A stretch of DNA of 64,000 nucleotides from Selenomonadaceae bacterium (GCA_017614505.1 JAGABT010000001.1:515-64514); one strand, 5' to 3'. Shown: positions 1 to 46,521, counted from the first letter of the stretch. Notes: a model not told the origin generated them from the letters alone. Program-made: numbers and translations.

Positions 1-960
1 TCCGCGCTCAGAACGTAGCCCGCGCTTACCGCCTCGGCAATATAATTCGCCACGCCGCCGGAAATTTCCCAGTGCGCCGCCGTCGTACTCGATTGAACAA
101 CGTCATTCGCCAGCTTAAGCGTGTAGCCTTCGGAAATCGTCACGGTATCTTCACCGAGCATAGACGCGTTCAAAGTCACAACTTTATTTTTCCGCGAAAT
201 TCCGTCAATGGAGGCGCCGCTCTTAAGCCCGCTGACCGTAGCCAGAGTATTTCCGCCGCTGGCAGCAGAATAACGAATGCTCCTCGCGTCGCCCATAAGA
301 TAATGCCCCGCCGTCGAATAAGCCGCGGTGTAAATCGCCATCGTGCCGCTGATACTCCAGTAAGCGGGCGTAGTCACCGGCGTAACGACATCCGCGCCGA
401 GCTTAAGCGCGTAACCGGCGGAAATGTAAACAGTCTCTTCGCCCAGCACAGATTCGGAAAGCGTAACTTCCGTACCGTCAAGCGAAATTCCGGCAAGCGT
501 GGAACCTTCGCGCAGATGAGTTATCGAAATCAGCGTATCGCCGGTGGGATTCTGGTAGGCAATGCTCTTGCGGTCGTCCGAAAGGACATAGCCCGCCGTC
601 GTGCCAGCGCCAATATAATTCGCCGTCGTGCCGGAAATATCCCAGTAAGCCGACGTAGCTTTTGGCGTGGCAACGCCGCTGCCGAGTTTGAGCGTGTAGT
701 TGCCGGAAACGCTGGCAGTGCCGGTACCGAGAACCGTCGCTGGCAGAATAATTTCCGAGCCGCTCATTGAAATATCGCTGGCGTCGGCGCCGTTGACCAG
801 CCCCGTAATTGTCGCAAGAGTTTCGCCGCCGCTCGCCGCGCTGTAGCTGAAAGTTTTCCCGTCCGAAGAAATTGCGTAGCCAGCAGTTTTACTCGCCGCC
901 CTGTAGGTTGCAGTAGTGCCGGAAATGCTCCACGCCGCCGCAATGTCACGCGCTTCATCG
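1..960 (-). repeat. In-frame tandem coding repeats of 285-288 bp (95-96 aa); at least 4 copies, continuing past the window edge.
   Basis: A conserved W-x-ISG-x-x-A-x-Y anchor recurs, with Trp codons (cca on the + strand) at 69-71, 357-359, 642-644 and 930-932, all in one frame. Spacings are 288, 285 and 288 bp. Confidence 0.75.
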
Positions 961-3425
961 TTTATCGTCAGACTCCCGCTGCCGGTTTTCTGCAGGGCGT
1001 AGGCGGCGCCGGTAATGCTGCCGGTGTGGTAGGCGCTGCTGTCCTTTACTGTCAGGTAACCGCCGTAAATCAGCGCGGCGCTGGCAGTCGAAGTTATGGT
1101 TTTGCCGTTGAGTTCCAGCGTGATATTTTTACCGGCGGAAATTGTCACGGCGCCAGTCAGACTGAGATTCTGCGTGAGCGTGATTGTATCGCCGGAACTG
1201 GCGGCGGCAATCGCGTCGGTGAGCGAAGTATAAGTTACGCTGCCAATTTTGCAGACAGGCTCGGTAATTTCGCTGGTGTCTATGTGCAGGGTTTTACCGG
1301 CGGCGCCCTTCAGCGTGACGGCACCCGTGCCAATCTTAACGACAACGTCCGAGCCGCTGGCAACGGTCGCGAAGGATTTTCCCGCAACTTCGAGCGTGTC
1401 ATTCGCGCTGAAATTGTAAATCACGTCGGCGCCGTCGCCTTCGGTGTAGCTGAAAATATTCGCGCTGCCGCTGGAATAAATCACGTCGTTTCCCGTGCCG
1501 CCGGTAATGGAATTGCGCGAGCCGGTCAGGCTTATCGTGTCATTGCCAGCGCCGGAATAAATCAGCGCGTAAGAGCCGCTGCCGGTAATCGAATCGCCGC
1601 CGGTCGCCGAATCGTCCGCCACGATTGTAACGTTGCTGCCCACGCCGGAAATATTCCACGAGCTCTGGTCGTTGAAGTAGGTGACGATTTGTTTAATGGC
1701 GCTGTTGAGCGTGTAGGTTTTGCCGGACGCCGAGCCGACAGAAACGCCGGTGTATTCACTGTCGAAAGAAATTACGCGGGCAGTCGTGAGGTCGGTGGAC
1801 TTGCCGGAAATGTAATAAATCCCGTCGGTGCGCAGCTCGACGCGGGCGGAAAGTTTATCGCTGGAAAGAATCGACGCGTTGGAAGAATCCGAGGCGGTTT
1901 TAGCAAGCCAGCGCAGGAAAATGTAGCCTGCCACGTAGGGATAAGAGCCGCCGCCGCCCTTGAGCGTAGCCGCCTGGTTGGAATTTATAATGTCGGTGCG
2001 GAGGTAATCGTCGAGCCACGCGTTGGAATTGTTGTTGACGGAATTATTCATGAGCGTGATAATTGAACCAAGGCGTTTATCGTCGATGCCGTGAATGAGT
2101 TCCGCCATGCCTTCCTTGAGAAATAGTGGCAGGTACGCGAAAAAGTTGACATTGGCGGCAAAAACTGCGTGGTTAAATTCGTGGGCGATAGTTCGGTCAA
2201 GCGTGCCGCCGCCGGAAACGACGCAGTTGGGGTCGTTCTCGTTTGAAATGCTGCCGAAATATTTTTCGTTCACGACGAGCGAAAGGCTGAGGGCTTTGCC
2301 GCTGCTTTTGCTGTAGCTGTGCGAAACGTAAGCGAGCCAGCTCTGGCTGGTGTAATTTTCAAAGTACAGATTAATTTCGGTAACCGAGGAGCCGCCGTCG
2401 GTAAAGTTGAGCCCCGTTGCCTCTTCGTTGAGCTGAAGAGCTTCCTTGAACCACCATTTGTAAAGACCGGCGATAATGACGTAGCGCCAGTCGCCCTTAA
2501 GGCTGTCGATGTTGCTGGCGTTTATGGCGGTGGTGATATTTCTGGAAGTTGGGTCGCGCTGCCCGATAATGTTTAATTTCAGCCCGCCATAAGTGAAGGA
2601 AAGATTTCCGCTGGCGTCCACGTCCAGAAAAGACGGGTCGAACTCGCTGGTAACGTTGCCGAGGAAATTTCCGCTGGCAAGGGTGCTGTTGCCGACGAAA
2701 CTGCCGCTGCCGTTGAAGTAGCCCTTAATCGTCGTGACTTTGCTAAGGTCGACGCTGGGATTTGACGCGGCGAGGGAGCTTGAAGTAACGGTGCCGCTGC
2801 GCGTGAATTTGACAGTGGAAGTGCCGTCGGAATTTACGCTGAGGACGGAAGTGAAATCGCCCGCGCCGAGAATCGTGGTTTTGCCTGCAACGTAGTCTTT
2901 GACTGTGAAATTTTTGACGCCGGAGCCGACGGAAACTGTATCGTTATCGCCGCCGGTAACTACAACTTCGCTGAACCCGTCGAGGTAAATGAAATCGTTG
3001 CCGGCGCCCGCCGAAATTGAATCTTCGCCGCCGGAATAAATCGTGTCGTCGAAGCCGGTCGCCTGCACGTGCCAGCCGTTACTGCCGGTGAAAATATTTT
3101 GCGCGGCGGTCGCGCTGGAATTGGCGGTGTAGGTATTGGCAATTTCCAGAACGGTCGTGTCGGCAGTTTTGGTGACGGAACCGCCCGCGTCCGCGCCCGT
3201 TATCCCGCCGGTGTCGGTGTTTGAAACATTTATGCCGCATTCCGCCAGAAAAGTTGTAGAGTTCGCCGCGGCTTTTGCTGCTGCCAGAAACTGCTGGCGC
3301 GCGTCTTCAATTCCAGTGTAGTCCGAACAGGCTTGAATTGCCTCGTCCAGCATTTCCGTTGAATCTGTTTTGGCGGTCTTGTCCAGCGCCTCCATGAACT
3401 TCAAGATAACTTCCAGCTGCGTCAT
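1..3425 (-). CDS. Large extracellular repeat protein, N-terminal ~1140 codons only (runs off the left edge). It has an HExxH metallopeptidase-like motif, RTX-like Ca-binding repeats and tandem ~96-aa repeats.
   Basis: The minus frame is open from ATG at 3425 (SD GGAGGG at 3435-3440) to position 1. It is absent from the ORF track because there is no stop inside the window. Hand translation starts MTQLEVILKFMEALDKTAKTD. TIAHEFNHA (HExxH) is encoded at 2167-2192 and FDDTIYSGGEDSISAGAGNDF (GGxGxD-like) at 2991-3053, both in the frame of the ATG. No N-terminal signal peptide is evident. Confidence 0.7.
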   Translation of the reverse strand, partial: MTQLEVILKFMEALDKTAKTDSTEMLDEAIQACSDYTGIEDARQQFLAAAKAAANSTTFLAECGINVSNTDTGGITGADAGGSVTKTADTTVLEIANTYTANSSATAAQNIFTGSNGWHVQATGFDDTIYSGGEDSISAGAGNDFIYLDGFSEVVVTGGDNDTVSVGSGVKNFTVKDYVAGKTTILGAGDFTSVLSVNSDGTSTVKFTRSGTVTSSSLAASNPSVDLSKVTTIKGYFNGSGSFVGNSTLASGNFLGNVTSEFDPSFLDVDASGNLSFTYGGLKLNIIGQRDPTSRNITTAINASNIDSLKGDWRYVIIAGLYKWWFKEALQLNEEATGLNFTDGGSSVTEINLYFENYTSQSWLAYVSHSYSKSSGKALSLSLVVNEKYFGSISNENDPNCVVSGGGTLDRTIAHEFNHAVFAANVNFFAYLPLFLKEGMAELIHGIDDKRLGSIITLMNNSVNNNSNAWLDDYLRTDIINSNQAATLKGGGGSYPYVAGYIFLRWLAKTASDSSNASILSSDKLSARVELRTDGIYYISGKSTDLTTARVISFDSEYTGVSVGSASGKTYTLNSAIKQIVTYFNDQSSWNISGVGSNVTIVADDSATGGDSITGSGSYALIYSGAGNDTISLTGSRNSITGGTGNDVIYSSGSANIFSYTEGDGADVIYNFSANDTLEVAGKSFATVASGSDVVVKIGTGAVTLKGAAGKTLHIDTSEITEPVCKIGSVTYTSLTDAIAAASSGDTITLTQNLSLTGAVTISAGKNITLELNGKTITSTASAALIYGGYLTVKDSSAYHTGSITGAAYALQKTGSGSLTINDEARDIAAAWSISGTTATYRAASKTAGYAISSDGKTFSYSAASGGETLATITGLVNGADASDISMSGSEIILPATVLGTGTASVSGNYTLKLGSGVATPKATSAYWDISGTTANYIGAGTTAGYVLSDDRKSIAYQNPTGDTLISITHLREGSTLAGISLDGTEVTLSESVLGEETVYISAGYALKLGADVVTPVTTPAYWSISGTMAIYTAAYSTAGHYLMGDARSIRYSAASGGNTLATVSGLKSGASIDGISRKNKVVTLNASMLGEDTVTISEGYTLKLANDVVQSSTTAAHWEISGGVANYIAEAVSAGYVLSA

Positions 3426-3521
3426 ATCTGTTCACCCTCCGCGAATTATTTTCACAAAAAAAATCGGTACAACCTTTATCAGTTATATCGATTTTTCGGA
3501 AAATCAGTTTAAGAAAGGGCG

Positions 3522-5135
3522 TTAAGCTTCGAGCAGCTGCCGCTTGAGGTCTTGATACGCCTGCGAGAAATGCGGCGGGTACTGCGATTCTTTTTGTGCG
3601 CCGAAAGGTCTGGCGGTCAGCGCCAAAATCGGCGGCGACTGAATGCGTTTTGCAACCGCCATGCCGTTGAACGCCTTCCACCATTTTTCGAGGTCGGCGA
3701 TAAAATCTTCAACGGTCGGGAAATATTTTTTCGCTAAGCCGTCAGCACAGCCAATTTCGTCTTCGAGCAAGCCCTGCGCGTAAGCCAGCAGTAAATCTTC
3801 CGGCGCGGACATTTTTTCAGTGAAGGCGCGGAAAAGATAATCGTGGTAGTCGTAGTGAAGCGGGTCGCCCTTGCCCTCGTCGACGTTCTGGGCGTCGGAA
3901 AGTTCAGCGCTCGGCACAATGTCAATAATCCCCTGCGGAATGACTTCGCGCCCGTAAACTTCGTCGTTCATGTAGCGCGCCAGCTCGTAAATCTGGAATT
4001 TCCACAAATCCGCCAGCGCCGCCATAAATCCAGCCGCGTCGCCGTACATCGTCGCATAGCCAATCGTGGTTTCCGCCTTGTTGGCGTTGCAGGTAAAGAC
4101 GCCGCCGACTGCCGCTGCCAGCGCCGATAAAATTCTGGAACTGCGGTCGCGCGCCTGAATATTTTCCCGCACGAAGCCGGAGATTTTTATTTCTTCCGTC
4201 GAGCCGTAGGAGAGGAAAGTTACCGGCGTCGATTCGATTTGCTTAACCGTGGCGTCGACTGAATCCTGAATTGGCAGTACGACGTACTTGCAGCCGAGAT
4301 TTTTCGCAAGCGTCTCGCTCAGATTTTTAGTTGTATCCGAATTGAACGCGCTGGGCATGTTCACCAGCAGGACATTTTCCACGCCGAGGATTTTTGAATA
4401 GAGCGCCGCCGCAACCGCCGAATCAATTCCGCCGGAAATTCCAATGACGACTTTTTTCATTCCAATCTGCGCGAGGAATTTTTCGACGCCGAAACTCAGC
4501 GCGCGGTAAATTCCGGCGACAGGCGGTTCCTCAGGCAGTTCAAGCGCGGGCAGGCTTTCGAGTCCGTCAAGCTCAACGACGCTCAGATTTTCGTGGAACG
4601 GCGCAACTTCGTGAATAACTTTGCCGTCGCGATTGTAAATTCTGCTCTCGCCGTCGAAGGGGAAAATATTTTTGCCGTTGTTCTGGACGCCGACCGCGTT
4701 GACGTAAACCAGCGGGCATTTGGCGTCGATAGCGCGCGCGGCACAGAAATTGTAGCGCTCGGCGTTGCCGCTGGCGTAGGGCGTGCCGTCAAGCATGAAG
4801 CAGAGCTGCACGCCGGCAATTTCCGCGGTAAAAACCGTCCTGTCCTGCAGGCGATTTACCAGCTTGCCGCCGCCCGCCACGAGAATTTCCTGTACGCCGC
4901 CGAAAATCACGGCAATTCCTTCGCTCGCCGCAATTATCTGCTGGCAGAAAGTGTCGCAGTCCTTCAAAAAAGCCCGCGAAGTTGTGTACAGCCGCCCCGA
5001 AACTGACGACGCCGGAAAAACTATCGCCGCGCATTCCTGTTCCTTCGCCTGCGCGATAAACTTCAAAATTTTTTCCGCGTTGAGCGCGGGCTGCCCCGCC
5101 GCTACTTCGATTTGTGCCAATGCTATTTTTGCCAA
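3522..5135 (-). CDS. nadE: Glutamine-dependent NAD+ synthetase (N-terminal CN-hydrolase domain plus C-terminal NAD synthase domain).
   Basis: 537 aa with the PP-loop motif ISGGIDSAVAAAL. The N-terminal nitrilase-like domain begins MAKIALAQIEVAAG. Confidence 0.88.
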   Translation of the reverse strand: MAKIALAQIEVAAGQPALNAEKILKFIAQAKEQECAAIVFPASSVSGRLYTTSRAFLKDCDTFCQQIIAASEGIAVIFGGVQEILVAGGGKLVNRLQDRTVFTAEIAGVQLCFMLDGTPYASGNAERYNFCAARAIDAKCPLVYVNAVGVQNNGKNIFPFDGESRIYNRDGKVIHEVAPFHENLSVVELDGLESLPALELPEEPPVAGIYRALSFGVEKFLAQIGMKKVVIGISGGIDSAVAAALYSKILGVENVLLVNMPSAFNSDTTKNLSETLAKNLGCKYVVLPIQDSVDATVKQIESTPVTFLSYGSTEEIKISGFVRENIQARDRSSRILSALAAAVGGVFTCNANKAETTIGYATMYGDAAGFMAALADLWKFQIYELARYMNDEVYGREVIPQGIIDIVPSAELSDAQNVDEGKGDPLHYDYHDYLFRAFTEKMSAPEDLLLAYAQGLLEDEIGCADGLAKKYFPTVEDFIADLEKWWKAFNGMAVAKRIQSPPILALTARPFGAQKESQYPPHFSQAYQDLKRQLLEA

Positions 5136-5155
5136 TCCAATCGCTCCTTCAAAAA

Positions 5156-6121
5156 CTAATCGCGGCGCCGGTTACGCCCATTCCGCTTGTCCTTTTCCTT
5201 CTTCATGTACTGCTCGTAAAAATCTTCCACCGGCATGAACAGGTAGCGTATCCCTTCGGCGAAACCAATCCACGTCGGCAGCGTCGTCCAGAAAAACAGC
5301 AGGTACAAAACGCCCTGCCAGGTTTTCCCCTGATAAAATTTATGCGCGCCGAGTGAGCCGAGGAAAATTGCCAGCGCCGATTGAATGAGTTTCCGCTGGA
5401 TAATTTCTGGTCGCTCTTCCTCTGGGAAAGTTTGAATTTCGTCATCGTCCTCGTAGTGGCGGCGCCTGCGCGTCGGCAGTGGAATATTTCTGCGCTCAAT
5501 TCCGCCGAGCGGCTGATTCAAAAGGTCGGTATCGATTCGGACGTTGCCATATTCATCGATTTCGCCAATGTCAATCGTCTTGCGCTTAATCCCTTCGGCG
5601 TCGAGCTGCTGTTCCATAACTTTCAGTTCGGCGTCGGCGGAAATAATCTGGTCATTGAGCACGTGTTCAAACTGGTCGGCGTAGGCGTCGTCCAGCGCGG
5701 AGAGCGTCATTTTCATGCGGGATTTCAAATCGCGGACGCGGTCGGTAGAAAGTTCCGTTTCCTCCAGCTCCTGATACTGCCGGACGATTTTCACCGCGCG
5801 ATCCTGATAGTAGTCGATGAACTTGTACGCCAGCGGGATTCTGTCGGGATTTTTTTCAAGGTGCGCCAGCAGTTTTTTAGCGACGCGCTGCATTCTGGTG
5901 AGCTGAGCTGCAAGTTCCCTGTCTGAAATTTCCGCCCGCGCCTGTTCAAGGTATTTGAAATCCGCCATCGCCTTATCGAAATTTTCCTGCAGGTAAGTTG
6001 CGCGTTCTTCTTCGAGTTCCTCTAAATCCAGCTGCGGCGTTCGATTTTTCCGCCAGTCCCAAAACGCCTTTCCGCCGAATATCACGGCGACCGTCGACAA
6101 AATTACCAACAAATAATCCAC
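5156..6121 (-). CDS. Membrane protein with an XpaC/TelA-like helical region and a C-terminal TM2 domain.
   Basis: N-terminal TM helix (LLVILSTVAVIFGG). A long charged helical region follows. The C-terminus LGAHKFYQGKTWQGVLYLLFFWTTLPTWIGFAEGIRYLF resembles a TM2 domain. Confidence 0.5.
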   Translation of the reverse strand: MDYLLVILSTVAVIFGGKAFWDWRKNRTPQLDLEELEEERATYLQENFDKAMADFKYLEQARAEISDRELAAQLTRMQRVAKKLLAHLEKNPDRIPLAYKFIDYYQDRAVKIVRQYQELEETELSTDRVRDLKSRMKMTLSALDDAYADQFEHVLNDQIISADAELKVMEQQLDAEGIKRKTIDIGEIDEYGNVRIDTDLLNQPLGGIERRNIPLPTRRRRHYEDDDEIQTFPEEERPEIIQRKLIQSALAIFLGSLGAHKFYQGKTWQGVLYLLFFWTTLPTWIGFAEGIRYLFMPVEDFYEQYMKKEKDKRNGRNRRRD

Positions 6122-40632: not shown

Positions 40633-41112
40633 ATGGAAAGTTTGTACGTGGCGGAAATTACCGTGCTGGGAATTGGCAACACGATTCTCAGTGACGAAGG
40701 TTTTGGCGTGAAGGTTGTGGAGTACCTGCGCGAGAATTATAATTTTCCAGAAAATGTCGCGCTGATTGACGGCGGGACGCTCGGCGTGGAGCTGACGCAT
40801 TTTATCGTTGGCACGCAAAAACTTTTGATAATCGATTCGATAGACGGTGGCGCTGAACCAGGTACGACGTTTCACCTGCGCGATAACGAGCTTTTTAAAC
40901 ACTTCACGCAGAAAATTTCAGCGCACGAAATTGGCGTGCAGGATATTCTGACGACGCTGGAAATTACCGGCAAAAAAATACCCGTCGTCGAACTGATTGG
41001 CGCACAGCCTTTCAGCCTCGGAGCGGGAACGGAATTAACGCCGCCTATGCAAAAATTACTGCCGGTCTTCGCGGACAAGGCGCTGGAAATTTTAAAACGC
41101 TGGAATGGTTAA
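40633..41112 (+). CDS. Hydrogenase maturation endopeptidase (HyaD/HybD/HycI family).
   Basis: VLGIGNTILSDEGFG, IDGGT and SAHEIG motifs. Confidence 0.85.
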   Translation: MESLYVAEITVLGIGNTILSDEGFGVKVVEYLRENYNFPENVALIDGGTLGVELTHFIVGTQKLLIIDSIDGGAEPGTTFHLRDNELFKHFTQKISAHEIGVQDILTTLEITGKKIPVVELIGAQPFSLGAGTELTPPMQKLLPVFADKALEILKRWNG

Positions 41113-41531
41113 TTGGTCGACGGTATGACGCCGCTGGCGCAATTTACAATAACGTAATCGCCGGAAACGCCTACGTGAAAGTGAAACGCATTGTCGAGCA
41201 TTCTGATATTTCGCGACTGCGCCTTTTTGCTGGTAAAGTACCAGTTGCTGCCGTCCTGCCCGACCAATGTGTAAAGCGGACTCGAAGCGAACCTTCTGAC
41301 GTACTTCCCGACGTATTCGCTCGTTTTGCCGTCAAGCACCTCGTAAGTCCACTGCGTATACTTCATGCCGTTATGAGACTTTTCCTGCATGCCGTGAAAA
41401 TCGATGCGCTTTTTCATGCTGTTGCTTGTGATATCGTAAAAGCTGGGAATGTAGATAGCGGCAAAGACCTCAGTCACCGGAATAATCAGCGCGAGTGCCA
41501 GCAGTATCGGTAAAATTTTTCTCATCGTCAA
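41109..41531 (-). CDS. Secreted protein, paralog 3 of the RiPP-cluster triplet.
   Basis: Signal peptide MTMRKILPILLALALIIPVTEVFA. It shares the W/Y-x-YE ... YV ... Y-x-L-VGQ core with the two upstream paralogs. Confidence 0.6.
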   Translation of the reverse strand: MTMRKILPILLALALIIPVTEVFAAIYIPSFYDITSNSMKKRIDFHGMQEKSHNGMKYTQWTYEVLDGKTSEYVGKYVRRFASSPLYTLVGQDGSNWYFTSKKAQSRNIRMLDNAFHFHVGVSGDYVIVNCASGVIPSTN

Positions 41532-41541
41532 AGCCTCCTTT

Positions 41542-42090
41542 TTAATTTCCGCCCTCGTAGCGAATACCTTCAGCTACTTTTATGGTAAACGATGCGCGGT
41601 CTTCCAGGTAGTAGCGATTTTCACTTATTTTGACATGACCATAGTAATTATGCGGGCGATCCAGACTGGCGCGCGGGATATTTCTGGAGCCGGTATAATC
41701 GAAAATCCAGAGATAGCACTTAAGACCGGTGACACTTATGAAATCGTCGACACGGCTTTTCGTGAGCGTGAAGGGATAACCGCTGTTGTTCAGGAGCTGC
41801 ACGAAAGCTTCCGCAAAATCTTCGCTTTCAGCGACAGAAAGTGGACATTCGTAACTATAGAAAGTGCAGCCCCACCTGTCTTTTCCTGATTCGCGAAAGC
41901 GTACCTTATTGCCGGCAACGACGCGAAAGTCCGGCACGAACTCGCTTAATCCGGCAAGCTCTCTCGAAGTATCGTCGTCAATGTCTGGTATCCAGCTTCT
42001 CACGTCAGCCGACGATGAACCAGCTGCAAAACTTGCCGCCGGAAAAATTATCAGCGCCGCCAGCAGAATCGGTAAAAATTTTTTCATCAC
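41542..42090 (-). CDS. Secreted protein, paralog 2.
   Basis: Signal peptide MMKKFLPILLAALIIFPAASFA. Its coding sequence is nearly identical at the DNA level to that of paralog 1. Confidence 0.6.
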   Translation of the reverse strand: MMKKFLPILLAALIIFPAASFAAGSSSADVRSWIPDIDDDTSRELAGLSEFVPDFRVVAGNKVRFRESGKDRWGCTFYSYECPLSVAESEDFAEAFVQLLNNSGYPFTLTKSRVDDFISVTGLKCYLWIFDYTGSRNIPRASLDRPHNYYGHVKISENRYYLEDRASFTIKVAEGIRYEGGN

Positions 42091-42104
42091 TCAAACCTCC
42101 ATTC

Positions 42105-42566
42105 TCAGTCCATGGAAATTCCTCGCGCCAGTTTAATGTCGACGCTTTTATCGTGCGTGGTAATGCAAATATGCCAGCTTTTCGGTCTGGGCTTATTGTT
42201 CTCGCTAACAGTGACGCGGTATCGGATTGATTTTCCACTGGATTCCAGCCGGATACCGTCGTTGTCAGTCGAAGCGAGACGCCATTCGCAGTTGTTCTTC
42301 GATTTGGTCTGTCCGACTATTTCGTAGGGATATTCTGAAGTCAGCAGTTCTATGTACTTTTCCACATAATCGAGCAGCTCGTCGCCGGAACATTCATAAC
42401 TGTACTCGTCGTAAGAAGCCCTGGAACTGCGGCGGCTGCTCATGCCGGTAAATTCAATATCCTTGCCCATCCTGATAAAATTCGGTACCAGAATCGTTGC
42501 GGATTCTGCCGTTATCGCCGGAAAAATTATCAGCGCCGCCAGCAAAATTGGTAAAAATTTTTTCAC
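42105..42566 (-). CDS. Secreted protein, paralog 1.
   Basis: The GTG start overlaps the ABC transporter stop (GTGA at 42563-42566). Signal peptide MKKFLPILLAALIIFPAITA. Confidence 0.6.
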   Translation of the reverse strand: MKKFLPILLAALIIFPAITAESATILVPNFIRMGKDIEFTGMSSRRSSRASYDEYSYECSGDELLDYVEKYIELLTSEYPYEIVGQTKSKNNCEWRLASTDNDGIRLESSGKSIRYRVTVSENNKPRPKSWHICITTHDKSVDIKLARGISMD

Positions 42567-44047
42567 GAGGATTCTCCTTTCAGCTCAACAATTTCGTCTG
42601 CAATTTCCATCAGCCGCGCGTCGTGAGAAATAATCAGCGTGATACGCCCCTCCTTCCCGATTTTGATTTTCTCAATGAGTTCAGCAACCGCCGCCGCGTC
42701 AAGGTTATTATCCGGCTCGTCCAGAATCCGAATGTCTGCGCTTTTTTCAAACGCCGCGCCTATGGAAATCCTGCGCCGTTCGCCGCCCGAAAGGTTATCG
42801 TTCTTGATAAAATCTTTCTGCTCAACGACGGCGATATTTTTTTTGCGCGCGTGAATCATGTCCAGTTCAGCCAGAGGAGTTTCGTTGTAGAAAATTTCGC
42901 CGCCCGCCGGTCTGAGCATTCCGCAAACCAGATTAATCAGCGTGGATTTACCGGCGCCGTTCCTGCCAACGAGGCAGTAGATTTTCCCGCGCTCAAAAGT
43001 TTTGCTGAAGCCGATGAAAATTTTCTGTTCGCCGAAACTGTAGCTGACATTTTGAACGGCGATTGACTCAACGCGCTCCAGAACTTTAGTGCCGTTAGTT
43101 TCCGGCGGCAGATTTTTAATTTCCATGATTCTCGCATACGCCGCCAGCGCATTCTGATAGCCCTGCCCGATATTCATGAAATAACCAACGCTTTGCATTG
43201 CCAGCAGGTAGTAGCCGTTCAGCGCGACGAAATTGCCAATGCTCAGCTCGCGGTTCAGAACGTCGACGCCGCCGAGGAAAAAAATCAGCACCTTGAAAAC
43301 CGCGTTGGCGTTAATGGAACTCGTCGAGAACCAGAAAATAATCTTTACCTGCCGCATAACCGCGACGAAATTTTTTCCAAACGCCGCGCGGAATTTTTTC
43401 AGCCATTCCTCGTACAGACCGTGAAGTTTTATCGAGTAGGCGTAAAGCAGAATATCGCTGAGGCAGGTGAAATATTTTGAATCAGCCTCACGCACGGCGG
43501 TTGAACGCTCGAACAGGATTTTTTCCAGCCTGCGATAAACGACGCCGTGAATCAGCGCGATAATCACGAAAATCACGAGCCACTTAAGCCCGATTGAGTA
43601 CAGAAGCCCCGCCGCCATACACAGCAGCGCGAAATTTATGCAAATGTCCGTCATGCTGTCGATTGCGAAGCGGATTAAATCAATCGCGTCCTGGTCGAGG
43701 CGCTTTGAAAGGTAAACCATGTCGGTCCTGAAAATAAAATCGCCGCGCGCCCTGTGAACGCTTTGCAGAACGCTTTCGATAACGCTGTTGTTGATTTCCA
43801 GCCGCACCTTCGACGAAAAAATTGTATTAAACCAGTGCGCCGCTATCGCCAGTGAACTTATCGCCAGCAGAAGCAGGATAAAATCTCGGAACATCGCCGT
43901 GTCTTTGCTCAGTAAAATTTCGTCGATAAATTTCGCCGTGAGGAATGGCTCCAGCAGATTCAGCGCTGCCGTCAAAACTGAACAGACCGCCACGACCGCC
44001 AGCGCCGCCTTGTAATTTTTGAAATAGCTCCAGAGAAATTTAATCAT
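42563..44047 (-). CDS. Fused permease/ATPase ABC exporter (no C39 peptidase domain).
   Basis: N-terminal TM region. Walker A is GRNGAGKST, the signature is LSGGERRR, Walker B is ILDEPDNNLD, and the H-loop is ISHD. Confidence 0.85.
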   Translation of the reverse strand: MIKFLWSYFKNYKAALAVVAVCSVLTAALNLLEPFLTAKFIDEILLSKDTAMFRDFILLLLAISSLAIAAHWFNTIFSSKVRLEINNSVIESVLQSVHRARGDFIFRTDMVYLSKRLDQDAIDLIRFAIDSMTDICINFALLCMAAGLLYSIGLKWLVIFVIIALIHGVVYRRLEKILFERSTAVREADSKYFTCLSDILLYAYSIKLHGLYEEWLKKFRAAFGKNFVAVMRQVKIIFWFSTSSINANAVFKVLIFFLGGVDVLNRELSIGNFVALNGYYLLAMQSVGYFMNIGQGYQNALAAYARIMEIKNLPPETNGTKVLERVESIAVQNVSYSFGEQKIFIGFSKTFERGKIYCLVGRNGAGKSTLINLVCGMLRPAGGEIFYNETPLAELDMIHARKKNIAVVEQKDFIKNDNLSGGERRRISIGAAFEKSADIRILDEPDNNLDAAAVAELIEKIKIGKEGRITLIISHDARLMEIADEIVELKGESS

Positions 44048-44243
44048 GGCTGATAAAAAAATTGCCGTCGAAGTAACGGCTGAGAATATTTTTGCATTTT
44101 GGATTCGTCGCAGTCGGAGAACCGCCGCAATTTGAGGGAACTGTTAGATTGTTGTTGACATTCGCTCGCCCGCCCGCCGCCTCGTTTTTACGGAACGACT
44201 AACCGTCGATTTCGCTGTACGTCTTTGTCAGCGCCGACGTGGC

Positions 44244-44364
44244 TTACCACGTGCCGACGACGAGTTTTCCGCAGCCAGGCGAAGCGCAGTTGCCGCATTT
44301 ACCGGCATAAACGCGGTTCTGCTCTTTTTTGACTACAACGGGTTTCTGATAAGTTTTTTTCATG
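44244..44364 (-). CDS. Putative RiPP precursor peptide, frame-disrupted as assembled (leader and Cys-rich core are in different frames).
   Basis: SD GGAGGAG is 7 nt before ATG 44364. Frame 0 gives MKKTYQKPRCSQKRAEPRLCR* (stop at 44299-44301). Skipping one C of the CCCC run (44340-44343) gives MKKTYQKPVVVKKEQNRVYAGKCGNCASPGCGKLVVGTW* (stop at 44244-44246). It is not in the ORF track because it is under 60 aa. Confidence 0.45.
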
Positions 44365-44423
44365 ATATGCTCCTCCTTTCCCTGAAGTTTTTACGACGGC
44401 TCTCCGACTGCGACGCTCCATTT

Positions 44424-45746
44424 TTACTCTAAAACTTCGGCAGCGGCGCGGGCTTTCACTAAATCTTCGCCGCATTCTGTAAAGTCGCCGTGATTTCTGT
44501 TAATCAAATCCGCAACACAAACCGTGCAGTATTCCAGATAGCGGCAGTCTGCACATTTCGCAGTAACCTCGCGCATTCGGCGGTTTCTCAAATTCCAGTT
44601 CCTGGACTGCTCCCAGATATTCTGCAGGCTGTCTTCGCGGACGGAGCCAAAAGTTTGGTGAAACGTATTGCACGGGCGAACGCCGCCGAAAGGGTCGATT
44701 GACAGCGAATTAATTCCGGCGCCGCAGGACGCCCGCTCAAGCATTTGTTCGCGCGAAAATCTCGGCGCGCTCAAATCTGCCGGCACGTACTGCTTATTCA
44801 GCTCATAGAATTTTTTATAAAGTTCCAAATCACCCAGCGCGTAATCGGCGGCACATTTGCTTTCGTGACCGGAAATAATCCGCGGGGAAACTGTCACGTA
44901 CAGCTTGAGGCGCCGACCGAGTTCAAAAAGACTCTTAAGCGAATCGAAATTCTGTTTCATCGCCACGCACTTAATGAAAGTGTTGACGCCCGCACTCTTG
45001 AACATCAGCGTCGCCTTGAGCGTTTTCTCAAACGAACCCTTGACGCCGGTAATTTTGTCGTGCTCAGCGGCGATACCGCTGTAGAGGCTGACAGAAATTC
45101 CGTCGACCTTCGCCGCGCAGAGCCGTTCAAAAATTTCGTCCGTGAGCCCGACGCCGGTCGTGTACAGGTTGACGATAAAGCCGAGCGAAGTCGCAAATTC
45201 CACAATGTCGCACAAATCTTTCCGAAGCAGGATTTCTCCGCCGGTAAAGAGAATACTAACGCAACCCATTTCGCGTGCCTGTGTCAAAATTTTTTTGTAC
45301 TCGTCAAGCGTCAGCTCATTGTCCGCGCAGAATTTCGGCGCGTCGTCAATGTAGCAGTGAATGCACCGCTCAACGCAGCGGTAGGTAAGCTCGAAGCTCA
45401 GCGAAAATAATTTGTGTTCGCGTGCAAATTCCTCCGCAACTTCCATGGGAATTTTATTCGACCACATGTTATCATTGAGCGGCGTTCCTTTGTGCAAAAT
45501 TTTTTCACTGACAAGCTCGCCGACAAATTCCTGAATATCGCGCTGCAGTTCGTCCAAGTCGTCAACCGCGTAAATTCCGGCAATGTGCGCGCACAAATCC
45601 TGAACCGAGCCGTCGGGGTTTTCCCTGAAGTAGTTCAGCACGTCCAGCGCAATTCCGTCAAAAATGTAGTCTTTCTGGCTGTCAATGCTGTGCAGGTAAA
45701 CTTTTTCCCCGAACGCGTGAAAGGAAATTCCTGGTGCCAGTTTCAC
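44424..45746 (-). CDS. Radical SAM / SPASM-domain peptide maturase with an N-terminal PqqD-like (RRE) region.
   Basis: CVERCIHC (CX3CX2C) and the C-terminal CADCRYLEYCTVC SPASM-type Cys cluster. The start was moved to GTG 45746, 8 nt after AGGAGG (45755-45760). Confidence 0.85.
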   Translation of the reverse strand: MKLAPGISFHAFGEKVYLHSIDSQKDYIFDGIALDVLNYFRENPDGSVQDLCAHIAGIYAVDDLDELQRDIQEFVGELVSEKILHKGTPLNDNMWSNKIPMEVAEEFAREHKLFSLSFELTYRCVERCIHCYIDDAPKFCADNELTLDEYKKILTQAREMGCVSILFTGGEILLRKDLCDIVEFATSLGFIVNLYTTGVGLTDEIFERLCAAKVDGISVSLYSGIAAEHDKITGVKGSFEKTLKATLMFKSAGVNTFIKCVAMKQNFDSLKSLFELGRRLKLYVTVSPRIISGHESKCAADYALGDLELYKKFYELNKQYVPADLSAPRFSREQMLERASCGAGINSLSIDPFGGVRPCNTFHQTFGSVREDSLQNIWEQSRNWNLRNRRMREVTAKCADCRYLEYCTVCVADLINRNHGDFTECGEDLVKARAAAEVLE

Positions 45747-45845
45747 GCTTTCCACCTCCTGAAAAATTTTCTATTATGATATCACAAGGCGGTATTTTAC
45801 TGTTTCACTTTTCCGCGCCGCCTTCTGAACTTTTCAGTCTAAGGC

Positions 45846-45874
45846 TTGATTTATTTTGGAATTTCTGCTATCAT
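45846..45874 (+). promoter_or_regulatory. Putative promoter of the lipoprotein gene.
   Basis: TTGATT (45846-45851), a 17-nt spacer, then TATCAT (45869-45874). Confidence 0.4.
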
Positions 45875-45918
45875 TATGCGTCAAAAGTAATTTTGAATTT
45901 TTTTGGGAGGAATTTTTA

Positions 45919-46521
45919 ATGAAAAAAACTCTGGCATTGCTGGCGGTTGCCGCAATGATGTTCACGGCAGGCTGTGGAGCGCAGAAAGCCGCTGAAGACG
46001 CCGCCAATACTGCTACAGAAAAAGTTGAACAGGCTGCGGACGCCGCCAAAGACGCTGCTGCTGACGCCGCTCAGACCGCCGTCAATGCAGTTGCGGCAAC
46101 AGCCGAAGACGCCGCCGCCGCTATGAAGAAAATTCAGGAAGGCGACAAAACCGGTATGGCTATTGCGGGCGTCGTTCCTGGAATTAACGTCGAACGCGTA
46201 ACCGAAATGTACGGCGAGCCCGTCGCTACCGTGGAAAATGTTCTTCAGCTTGAAAATGGTCTCGACCTCAAAGTTAAAGATAAAATCGTTGAAGAAGTTT
46301 CCACCAGCTTTGAAGGACTTCCCACGCCCGCAGGAATTGGCGTAGGCAGCGCGGCAACTGAACTCAACACCGCCGACCTCTACGGCACCGCCGACACCAC
46401 CACCAACAGCGACGGCTTCACGGTTTACAAATACACCAGCAACGACAAACGCTGGACGATCAGTTTCGTCGCCGACAGCGCCGGCTATATCACGTCTATC
46501 GTCTGCGGTCTGAATAAATAA
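45919..46521 (+). CDS. Lipoprotein with an Ala/Asp-rich N-terminal region.
   Basis: MKKTLALLAVAAMMFTAGC lipobox. SD GGGAGG lies before ATG 45919. Confidence 0.7.
   Translation: MKKTLALLAVAAMMFTAGCGAQKAAEDAANTATEKVEQAADAAKDAAADAAQTAVNAVAATAEDAAAAMKKIQEGDKTGMAIAGVVPGINVERVTEMYGEPVATVENVLQLENGLDLKVKDKIVEEVSTSFEGLPTPAGIGVGSAATELNTADLYGTADTTTNSDGFTVYKYTSNDKRWTISFVADSAGYITSIVCGLNK

Follow-up and report, generated by a model that had tools for sequence, protein, structure and literature searches.

A six-gene island of about 4.7 kb on the minus strand of a Selenomonadaceae genome from a gut metagenome is, in all likelihood, a genuine biosynthetic locus for a ribosomally synthesised and post-translationally modified peptide (RiPP). 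It lies within a 64,000-nt stretch of the assembly (GCA_017614505.1 JAGABT010000001.1:515-64514; hereafter the window, meaning the whole stretch that was analysed) and encodes, in this order along the minus strand, a radical S-adenosylmethionine (rSAM)/SPASM maturase, a 39-aa peptide, an ATP-binding cassette (ABC) exporter and three secreted proteins, S153, S182 and S140, whose common domain we call the S-domain. This is the layout given in an initial annotation of the same DNA, and every one of its open reading frames (ORFs) was recovered in the ORF listing. Comparison with related loci supports the view that the maturase and its precursor peptide represent a real, widespread and unnamed RiPP family, while the exporter and the S-proteins behave as a portable accessory module that has been found with at least three unrelated maturase/precursor pairs. 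The best explanation of the whole, which we favour with moderate confidence, is a RiPP island in which the peptide would be cross-linked, exported by the ABC protein and met in the periplasm by S-protein partners. Literature searches returned no description of the precursor family, of its pairing with a compact ABC protein, of the portable ABC plus S-domain set or of the S-domain fold; the family, the derived pairing with a compact, peptidase-less ABC exporter, the portable set and the fold are new.

The maturase was annotated initially as an enzyme with a PqqD-like N-terminus, a CX3CX2C motif and a SPASM CX2CX5CX2C motif, and this description is borne out both by Pfam and by the motifs in the sequence. 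Its likelier start is a GTG at 45746, the one used by gene callers, which gives a protein of 440 aa. The N-terminal RiPP recognition element (RRE), a PqqD-like leader-binding domain, scores above the Pfam gathering threshold and the PqqD domain is precomputed in most homologues; a Radical_SAM match follows (PF04055, 5e-22), and the SPASM domain contains seven cysteines, including those of the CX2CX5CX2C segment CADCRYLEYCTVC. In an alignment of 16 homologues extending down to 33% identity the three rSAM cysteines are invariant, as are SPASM residues C344, C362, C401, C404, C410 and C413, and C426 falls within a conserved CGD. Seven SPASM cysteines would be enough for two auxiliary Fe-S clusters. 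Together with an adjacent, co-oriented and conserved precursor gene, these are the features of an RRE-dependent rSAM/SPASM maturase. Relatives of the enzyme are numerous (361 at E<=1e-20, about 100 at identities of at least 35%), and the only names they carry are 'radical SAM protein' and 'PqqD family peptide modification chaperone'.

The precursor gene was invisible to the ORF track, as the initial annotation had remarked, because its product is shorter than the 60-aa ORF threshold. The small Cys-rich peptide gene placed after the maturase is nevertheless intact and is preceded by a strong Shine-Dalgarno sequence. Its product, MKKTYQKPVVVKKEQNRVYAGKCGNCASPGCGKLVVGTW, divides into a leader, MKKTYQKPVVVKKEQNRVY, and a core, AGKCGNCASPGCGKLVVGTW. 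A scan of one genome per species yielded 79 maturase loci, 30 of which were read for a precursor, and in 28 of the 30 a small co-oriented ORF lies downstream of the maturase at a distance of about 30-670 nt. The family so defined has a leader of the form MKKxYxKP, a core of the form C-G-x(4-8)-C-G-x-(L/A/Q)-V and a tail of 5-13 residues; what is kept is the two cysteines, the glycine after each of them and the hydrophobic tail, and the stretch that separates the two Cys-Gly units is a hypervariable loop. In the window peptide the family-conserved cysteines are C23 and C31, and there is an extra one, C26. Precursor loci occur in Selenomonadaceae, Lachnospiraceae, Oscillospiraceae, Christensenellaceae, Kiritimatiellia and Endomicrobium, with cores such as ...GACGKSKASGCGALVLKTS (Eubacteriales), ...TCACGMFHSCGPLVVNFRVN ([Clostridium] asparagiforme DSM 15981 and Enterocloster lavalensis) and ...AACGQRYTHGCGSAVINW (Kiritimatiellia), and a precursor identical to the 39-aa peptide of the window is found at one further locus, L133. 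Gene callers predict the peptide gene on 18 contigs, and an exact cluster look-up found the Enterocloster peptide labelled 'hypothetical protein' in both NCBI and UniRef. The precursor matched no NCBIfam model, SCIFF TIGR03973 included, and none in Pfam. A reading in which the precursor is split by a +1 frameshift was considered and rejected: the 39-codon frame is open, conserved and called as a gene on those contigs.

Table 1. Features of the RiPP island and its transcript, in window coordinates.
Feature	Position	Strand	Size or residues	Basis and remarks
rSAM/SPASM maturase with PqqD-like N-terminal RRE	44424..45755	-	443 aa from first GTG	ORF listing, Pfam
RRE (PqqD-like)	45495..45665	-	residues 31-87	PF05402, 25.4 bits against a gathering score of 23.4
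CX3CX2C motif, CVERCIHC	45354..45377	-	residues 127-134 (C127, C131, C134)	read from sequence
SPASM domain	44478..44726	-	seven Cys (C344, C362, C401, C404, C410, C413, C426)	PF13186, 1.9e-9
5' arm of long-range RNA stem bracketing the precursor gene	44391..44415	-		inverted repeat
Shine-Dalgarno AGGAGG	44372..44377	-	8 nt before precursor ATG	invariant in six loci
Precursor peptide	44244..44363	-	39 aa	ORF, conservation after maturase
Non-coding element with small internal hairpin, downstream of precursor stop	44169..44204	-		six-locus alignment
3' arm of long-range RNA stem	44106..44130	-		inverted repeat
Terminator-like hairpin and T-run just before ABC ATG	44064..44080	-		sequence
Fused ABC exporter (transmembrane and nucleotide-binding domains)	42563..44047	-	494 aa	ABC_membrane PF00664, 1.3e-10; ABC_tran PF00005, 1e-21
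S153	42105..42566	-	153 aa	Sec signal peptide, no lipobox; start overlaps ABC stop (GTGA)
S182	41542..42090	-	182 aa, probably 181 aa from ATG 42087	'ADVPxF' subtype with N-terminal extension
S140	41109..41531	-	140 aa, probably 138 aa from ATG 41525	stop overlaps convergent hycI stop

Beyond this the enzyme can be filed only under the generic class 'RRE-dependent rSAM/SPASM RiPP'; every curated family-level membership test came out negative. No NCBIfam maturase model reached its cut-off (release of June 2026, the enzyme being judged on the best 25 of 67 model matches). The profiles that align with it over its full length in a single stretch are StsB (NF045574; 109.8 bits against a cut-off of 625), AlbA (NF012164; 95.3 bits against 850) and MftC. 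The highest scores are those of AhbD (133 bits), PqqE (124 bits) and NirJ2 (118 bits), the AhbD, PqqE and NirJ matches being confined to the rSAM core at residues 120-284, and there are weak matches to models of the WgkB, DynA, MftC and SbtM types as well. The GggB and RumMC models, and likewise the SCIFF (TIGR03974) and PapB maturase models, lie outside the best 25 of the 67 matches, and the model of the ACGX system, TIGR04340, gives 69.4 bits against a cut-off of 400. Among sequences in the PDB the best match is SkfB; PqqE, cytosylglucuronate decarboxylase and CteB are also matched, the last over the whole length of the window enzyme (residues 23-422).

Comparison with characterised systems leads to the same generic placement. 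The sactipeptide systems (subtilosin SboA/AlbA, SKF SkfA/SkfB and the StsB family) resemble the island in relying on one maturase, about 440 aa long, that combines an N-terminal RRE with a CX3CX2C motif and a seven-Cys SPASM domain, and in having a short Cys-containing precursor adjoining the maturase gene and an ABC exporter in the operon; the full-length StsB and AlbA alignments and the SkfB match may be added. The island departs from them in scoring far below the equivalog cut-offs, in having its precursor downstream of the maturase, in conserving two cysteines only, each followed by glycine and without a recognisable acceptor pattern, in encoding no peptidase and in having secreted S-domain paralogs, rather than membrane immunity proteins, as accessories. 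Ranthipeptide systems (SCIFF/ScfB-CteB, freyrasin PapA/PapB and the CXXX-repeat peptides) resemble it in the use of rSAM/SPASM enzymes on short Cys-rich peptides in anaerobic Firmicutes, with a thioether that would be presumed in the present case, as well as in the CteB alignment and in the PapB-like enzyme and CxxxC-repeat precursor of a sister cassette described below; they differ from it in that the window precursor matches no NCBIfam model, that the PapB and SCIFF maturase models are not among the best 25 matches of its maturase, and that its C-G-x4-8-C-G core is of another kind. With a fused exporter of about 500 aa whose gene adjoins that of an rSAM maturase, the island recalls the streptosactin cluster (GggB maturase, GggC ABC) and PCAT1, although GggC is a weak match to the window exporter (81 bits against a cut-off of 750) and the PCAT1-type transporters, unlike it, have a C39 peptidase and an uncompacted nucleotide-binding domain. 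Finally, short Cys-Gly peptides beside an rSAM/SPASM enzyme are also a property of the ACGX-repeat system, and several family members do read A-C-G-x, but the window family has two spaced C-G units and not tandem ACGX repeats.

The exporter, annotated initially as a fusion of a transmembrane domain (TMD) with a nucleotide-binding domain (NBD), is confirmed as such by Pfam, and has both the TMD and all of the NBD motifs of a half-transporter of the type I exporter fold (Walker A GRNGAGKST, Q-loop VVEQ, LSGGE, Walker B ILDEPD and H-loop SHD). Alignment with PCAT1 (residues 158-576) takes in the TMD and the beginning of the NBD; the N-terminus corresponds to PCAT1 residue 158, and no C39 peptidase domain was detected in the protein by Pfam. 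The Q-loop and LSGGE are separated by 8 residues only, the helical subdomain is largely missing, and the best PDB match of the NBD is to that of an ABC-F protein, ExpZ. This compact NBD is kept in all homologues (63-74% identity, with 72-74% in L002, L004 and L005), and so is not a product of decay.

The maturase-precursor pair is found well beyond the loci that carry the exporter. A survey of neighbouring genes at about 37 loci, made by all-against-all comparison and Pfam, places the pair with two or three paralogous M48-like peptidases in 19 of them (L010, L017, L020, L022 and 15 others). An AAA ATPase is a further neighbour at several loci, and Enterocloster also has genes for a PP2C phosphatase and a PrsW-FHA membrane protease. 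Maximum-likelihood analysis groups the Selenomonadaceae enzymes in a single clade (100/100) that arises within the M48-type systems, with one M48-type locus (L007) basal and another (L006) inside the clade, and the ABC gene is confined to this clade (the window and L002-L005). From its distribution, the ABC gene is a derived partner, and the ABC and secreted proteins are accessories of the RiPP family and not its core. Outside the window's subclade, the M48-type neighbourhood forms a larger conserved system around the same maturase-precursor pair.

The accessory genes have a distribution of their own. A metagenome contig (L103; ENA ERZ1667814 scaffold_23819, 225-5696) carries a different cassette at the same chromosomal site, its flanks matching window positions 45845-45938 (93%) and 41005-41105 (83%). 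Here a 66-aa Cys-rich precursor is placed upstream of a 423-aa rSAM/SPASM maturase that is 27% identical to the window enzyme and closest to the StsB profile (157 bits against the cut-off of 625), and these are accompanied by an ABC protein 63% identical to that of the window and by five S-paralogs (179, 140, 159, 188 and 138 aa) that are pairwise orthologous to S182, S153 and S140. Between these two occupants of one site, therefore, the maturase and precursor have been exchanged and the ABC plus S set has been kept. A third type of cassette is found in another genus beside a tyrosine integrase (L095, G085:C111, 2406-10007), where the genes encode the integrase, an S138, a PapB-like rSAM enzyme of 384 aa, a 62-aa CxxxC-repeat precursor, a ClpP-like protease, a distant ABC protein (21% identical), an S139, a 360-aa secreted protein and a second S139. 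The triplet of secreted proteins, noted initially as a non-standard component, thus recurs beside rSAM-ABC pairs in the company of three mutually unrelated rSAM/precursor pairs. S-proteins accompany RiPP cassettes in the window and at L002, L003, L103, L133, L134, L135 and L095. At L133 an enzyme highly similar to that of the window stands with the identical precursor, an extra secreted protein of 298 aa, an ABC gene and an S179 gene whose start overlaps the ABC stop as ATGA, and at L134 and L135 the ABC gene is followed by S179 and then S139. By inspection only, the 360-aa secreted protein of L095 resembles the 298-aa one of L133.

Where S-proteins occur outside RiPP contexts, an S140-type and/or 'ADVPxF'-type protein follows a Sec-exported mini-protein of 71-76 aa with CxxCxGxG motifs. 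Mini-proteins with two such motifs each are seen immediately upstream of the S genes at L098 556-783, L099 7775-7990, L108 236-451 and L136 776-1006. All S contexts have in common a small exported Cys-rich polypeptide, which is either an rSAM peptide exported by an ABC protein, a zinc-finger mini-protein exported by Sec or a zinc-finger tail fused to the S-domain, and it is because of this common context, that is, by guilt by association, that we propose the S-domain as an extracytoplasmic partner of Cys-rich peptides. A functional link between the S-proteins and the peptide seems to us reasonably probable; a specific role in immunity or as carriers is a more tentative suggestion.

All three signal-peptide proteins (153, 182 and 140 aa) proposed at the outset are present. 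Their signal peptides have KK, a hydrophobic core and ESA, SFA or VFA cleavage sites, with no lipobox Cys. The GTGA overlap between the ABC stop and the S153 start was found, behind an AAAGGAG Shine-Dalgarno sequence; gaps of 14 nt and 10 nt precede the S182 and S140 genes, both of which have a GGAGG, and the S genes are probably translationally coupled to the ABC gene. Paralogy is supported by the matches of S153 to S140 (E=2e-10) and to S182 (E=5e-10), S182 and S140 being detectably related only through S153 or a profile. The features that the initial annotation had described as shared by all three are less uniform: only two of the proteins have the signal peptide MKKFLPILLAALIIFPA exactly, and only two have the '...VGQ' core motif. 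There is no other copy of the three S genes in the window genome, and sequences like S140 turn up in 7 of the 201 genomes of the family. The S-domain family is a rare one: an exhaustive profile search of 1.84 billion representatives gave 68 clusters at E<=1e-3 (a word-based homologue search for S140 gave 2 proteins only). Its members are single-domain secreted proteins of 130-190 aa and longer proteins with two or three copies, the latter fused to a C-terminal CxxCxGxG module (DnaJ-type zinc-finger-like), to Sel1 repeats or to an SH3b domain. No Pfam or NCBIfam family was found at E<=0.01 for the three window proteins, and in ten relatives, too, the domain lies outside all Pfam families. An AlphaFold2 model of S140 built on a 32-sequence alignment is alpha+beta, with a pLDDT (predicted local distance difference test score) of 95.2 and a pTM (predicted template modelling score) of 0.88. 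Foldseek comparison of the S-domain model with the PDB returned nothing at E<=1e-3, the best matches being DcrB, a KA1 domain and YbjN-like AmyR at TM scores of about 0.36-0.40. At the DNA level the signal-peptide regions of S153 and S182 are 96% identical over 50 nt (74% for S140), and S-paralogs that have otherwise diverged are 82-92% identical in the DNA of the ribosome-binding site and signal peptide, within and between genomes (L103, 3763-5347; window, 42028-42100 and 42516-42566); either gene conversion or strong constraint on this segment could account for the likeness.

The precursor gene is enclosed by a 25-nt inverted repeat, 88% complementary, that would form a long-range stem in the transcript. 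Equivalent arms at L001-L005 are 23-34 nt long and 197-271 nt apart. On an alignment of the six sequences, pairing in the 26-pair helix reaches 91.7%, and sliding the partners lowers it to 31-51%; several of the helix's G-U pairs are valid on the mRNA strand only, and four positions carry double changes. We infer that the stem may be a processing or stabilising structure which uncouples precursor dosage from that of the flanking genes. Between the precursor stop and the 3' arm lies the non-coding element GGTTAGTCGTTCCGTAAAAACGAGGCGGCGGGCGGG, 36 nt in length, which is more conserved than the coding sequence in the six loci, with one substitution (in L004) outside its two variable loop positions. 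In this element (44169-44204; GGTTAGTCGTTCCnnAAAAACGAGGCGGCGGGCGGG) the G-rich half has a predicted pairing with C-rich codons of the precursor ORF. An Rfam search of 43900-44500 gave no family at E<=1.

In the route that we propose, the 39-aa precursor would be translated from the segment of the operon mRNA enclosed by the stem of about 25 bp, in which the complementarity is observed and RNA processing or stabilisation is presumed. Its leader (MKKxYxKP...E) would dock on the N-terminal RRE of the maturase, as the domain and the conservation of the leader suggest, and the three-cluster rSAM/SPASM enzyme would then cross-link C23 and C31, and the extra C26, most likely as thioethers to a backbone or side-chain carbon; the closest profiles behind this step are the sactisynthases StsB and AlbA, and the solved structures are SkfB, PqqE and CteB. 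The peptidase-less ABC half-transporter, with its PCAT-like TMD, would move the peptide over the inner membrane into the periplasm, where the three Sec-exported S-paralogs may act as its binding partners in self-protection, as carriers or as receptors, a role suggested by their association with it. Selenomonadaceae (Negativicutes) are diderm, and an ABC half-transporter without periplasmic adaptor or outer-membrane partner in such a host would release the peptide into the periplasm, the compartment in which the S-proteins would reside. No leader peptidase is encoded in the island, and none was found elsewhere in the genome, which is 81% complete; a search for one with the M48-like partners of relatives gave Sel1-repeat noise only.

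How firmly each of these steps can be held depends on how the alternatives fare. Of the sactipeptide- or ranthipeptide-like pathway named in the initial annotation, the RiPP part stands, on the strength of the RRE, the rSAM and seven-Cys SPASM domains and the precursor ORF in 28 of 30 loci; the thioether part goes a step further than any curated model at its cut-off would take it. For a three-cluster enzyme that resembles AlbA and CteB and is paired with a two-Cys core, thioether formation is the most parsimonious interpretation, and we think it fairly probable. That the enzyme instead installs another modification, such as a C-C or C-O cross-link, an epimerisation, a thio-oxazole-type heterocycle at the Cys-Gly pairs or some other Cys-centred change, is in our judgement rather improbable. 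The top NCBIfam scores do go to SPASM enzymes that make no thioether (AhbD, PqqE and NirJ2, in the rSAM core only), models of the WgkB, DynA, MftC and SbtM types are weakly matched, and the strict conservation of Gly after each Cys is not, to our knowledge, a signature of sactionines or ranthionines. Yet the two family-invariant core residues are cysteines, the combination of RRE, rSAM and seven-Cys SPASM domains in a protein of about 440 aa matches AlbA, StsB and CteB in full-length alignment, and the matches to AhbD, PqqE and NirJ extend over residues 120-284 alone. A non-RiPP SPASM enzyme, either of the anaerobic sulfatase maturase (anSME) type or a cofactor maturase, with the small ORF as a spurious companion, would fit the best raw NCBIfam scores, which are those of cofactor-pathway SPASM enzymes. 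It is close to refuted by an RRE above the Pfam threshold and by a small ORF with a strong Shine-Dalgarno sequence whose sequence, position and strand are conserved in those 28 loci across phyla and which gene callers predict on 18 contigs, and the affiliation with anSME-type enzymes that the initial annotation had set against its own proposal was not found, the anSME model lying outside the best 25 of the 67 NCBIfam matches for the window enzyme.

The accessory genes leave more room for other readings. The S-proteins might be cargo of a recombination hot-spot that merely shares the operon and has a role of its own, for instance with the zinc-finger mini-proteins, an idea to which we give some, though lesser, weight. 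It draws on the S-domain pairs found beside the 71-76-aa CxxCxGxG proteins away from RiPP genes, on the fusion of the S-domain to CxxCxGxG, Sel1 or SH3b modules in multi-domain relatives, and on the high variability of the hycI-adjacent region within the genus. It fits poorly with the 4-nt overlap of ABC stop and S start in the window, L133 and L134, with the retention of the S set beside the ABC gene when maturase and precursor were swapped at one site, with its recurrence beside a third rSAM type and a distant ABC protein in another genus, and with the restriction of the S family to 7 of the 201 family genomes, three of them with S genes beside rSAM-ABC cassettes. A separate possibility, to which we give about the same limited weight, is that the peptide is physiological, a signal and not an antimicrobial, so that the ABC and S-proteins would serve as an export-and-sensing or retention device instead of a bacteriocin export/immunity pair. 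Most relatives pair the enzyme with M48-like peptidases and an AAA ATPase, the PP2C phosphatase and PrsW-FHA protease of Enterocloster are signalling-type partners, and the island has neither a classical immunity ABC (separate permease and ATPase) nor a two-component system. Against signalling stand the lack of any receptor kinase or regulator within the island and its patchy and mobile character (3 of the 201 family genomes carry it, and relatives have putative serine-recombinase or integrase genes close by), which is typical of competition factors.

Several results also weigh against our own account of cross-linking, ABC export and periplasmic partnership. The island falls short of the cut-off of every sactipeptide and ranthipeptide equivalog model, the cysteines conserved family-wide number only two, and an acceptor residue cannot be named. 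The ABC gene is absent from L001, is broken at L003 (9677-10083) by an internal deletion that leaves ORFs for an 85-aa N-terminal and a 64-aa C-terminal part, and is replaced elsewhere by M48/AAA genes, so that export by the ABC protein is dispensable for the family. Pairs of rSAM enzyme and precursor stand without S-proteins at L001, L004 and L005, and S-proteins without RiPP genes at L094, L098, L099-L102, L108, L109 and L136; in other bacteria, a CxxCxGxG module is fused to the C-terminus of tandem S-domains. For the RNA stem, a shuffling control of the covariation was not significant on six closely related sequences, and the locus was found in none of the RNA-seq runs searched.

Radical SAM RiPPs are among the commonest yet least understood peptide products of gut and rumen anaerobes. 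The locus described here defines an unnamed family of precursors and maturases with a simple, testable core of two Cys-Gly units around a hypervariable loop, and one that has cultured members in [Clostridium] asparagiforme DSM 15981 and Enterocloster lavalensis. The conserved stem around the precursor gene suggests a way in which the ratio of precursor to enzyme may be set. Three unrelated maturase/precursor pairs share one accessory set, a compact ABC protein and paralogous secreted proteins of a new fold. Should the S-proteins bind the peptides, RiPP pathways would gain a new type of immunity or carrier component, and there would be a way into the question of how diderm Firmicutes cope with peptides that are released into their periplasm. 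More speculatively still, the S-proteins may constitute a new class of extracytoplasmic binding proteins for small Cys-rich peptides, which travel with the compact ABC as a plug-in module for export plus periplasmic handling behind unrelated rSAM cassettes in diderm Firmicutes, act in self-immunity or as carriers or receptors, and have CxxCxGxG modules as partners elsewhere.

The island is an insertion between hycI and a lipoprotein gene. It is flanked by hycI and hypB on one side and by the lipoprotein gene and mfd on the other; a congener (L119) provides the empty site, hycI being followed directly by the lipoprotein gene, two further congeners have a single 122-aa ORF between them, and the hycI-adjacent region varies greatly in the rest of the genus. 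The window-type enzyme occurs in 3 of the 201 sampled family genomes, and the locus is present in DNA runs that are all gut metagenomes. The L003 locus has the window arrangement, with two S-genes beside its broken ABC gene and with maturase and precursor intact. A conserved attenuator at the ABC start was considered on account of the terminator-like hairpin there and was not accepted: at L004, 15 nt separate the stem arm from the ABC ATG, without room for a hairpin. In the window the ABC start (44047) comes 4 nt after this hairpin and lacks a recognisable Shine-Dalgarno sequence, a context that may reflect low or regulated translation of the transporter. Directly upstream of the maturase at three related loci (L002 980-1621, L004 7367-7807 and L005 7039-7806) there are ORFs resembling serine recombinases (resolvases), a putative call made by eye from the motifs YARISSKDQ and SIDRLGRN, and these neighbours suggest that the cassette is mobile.

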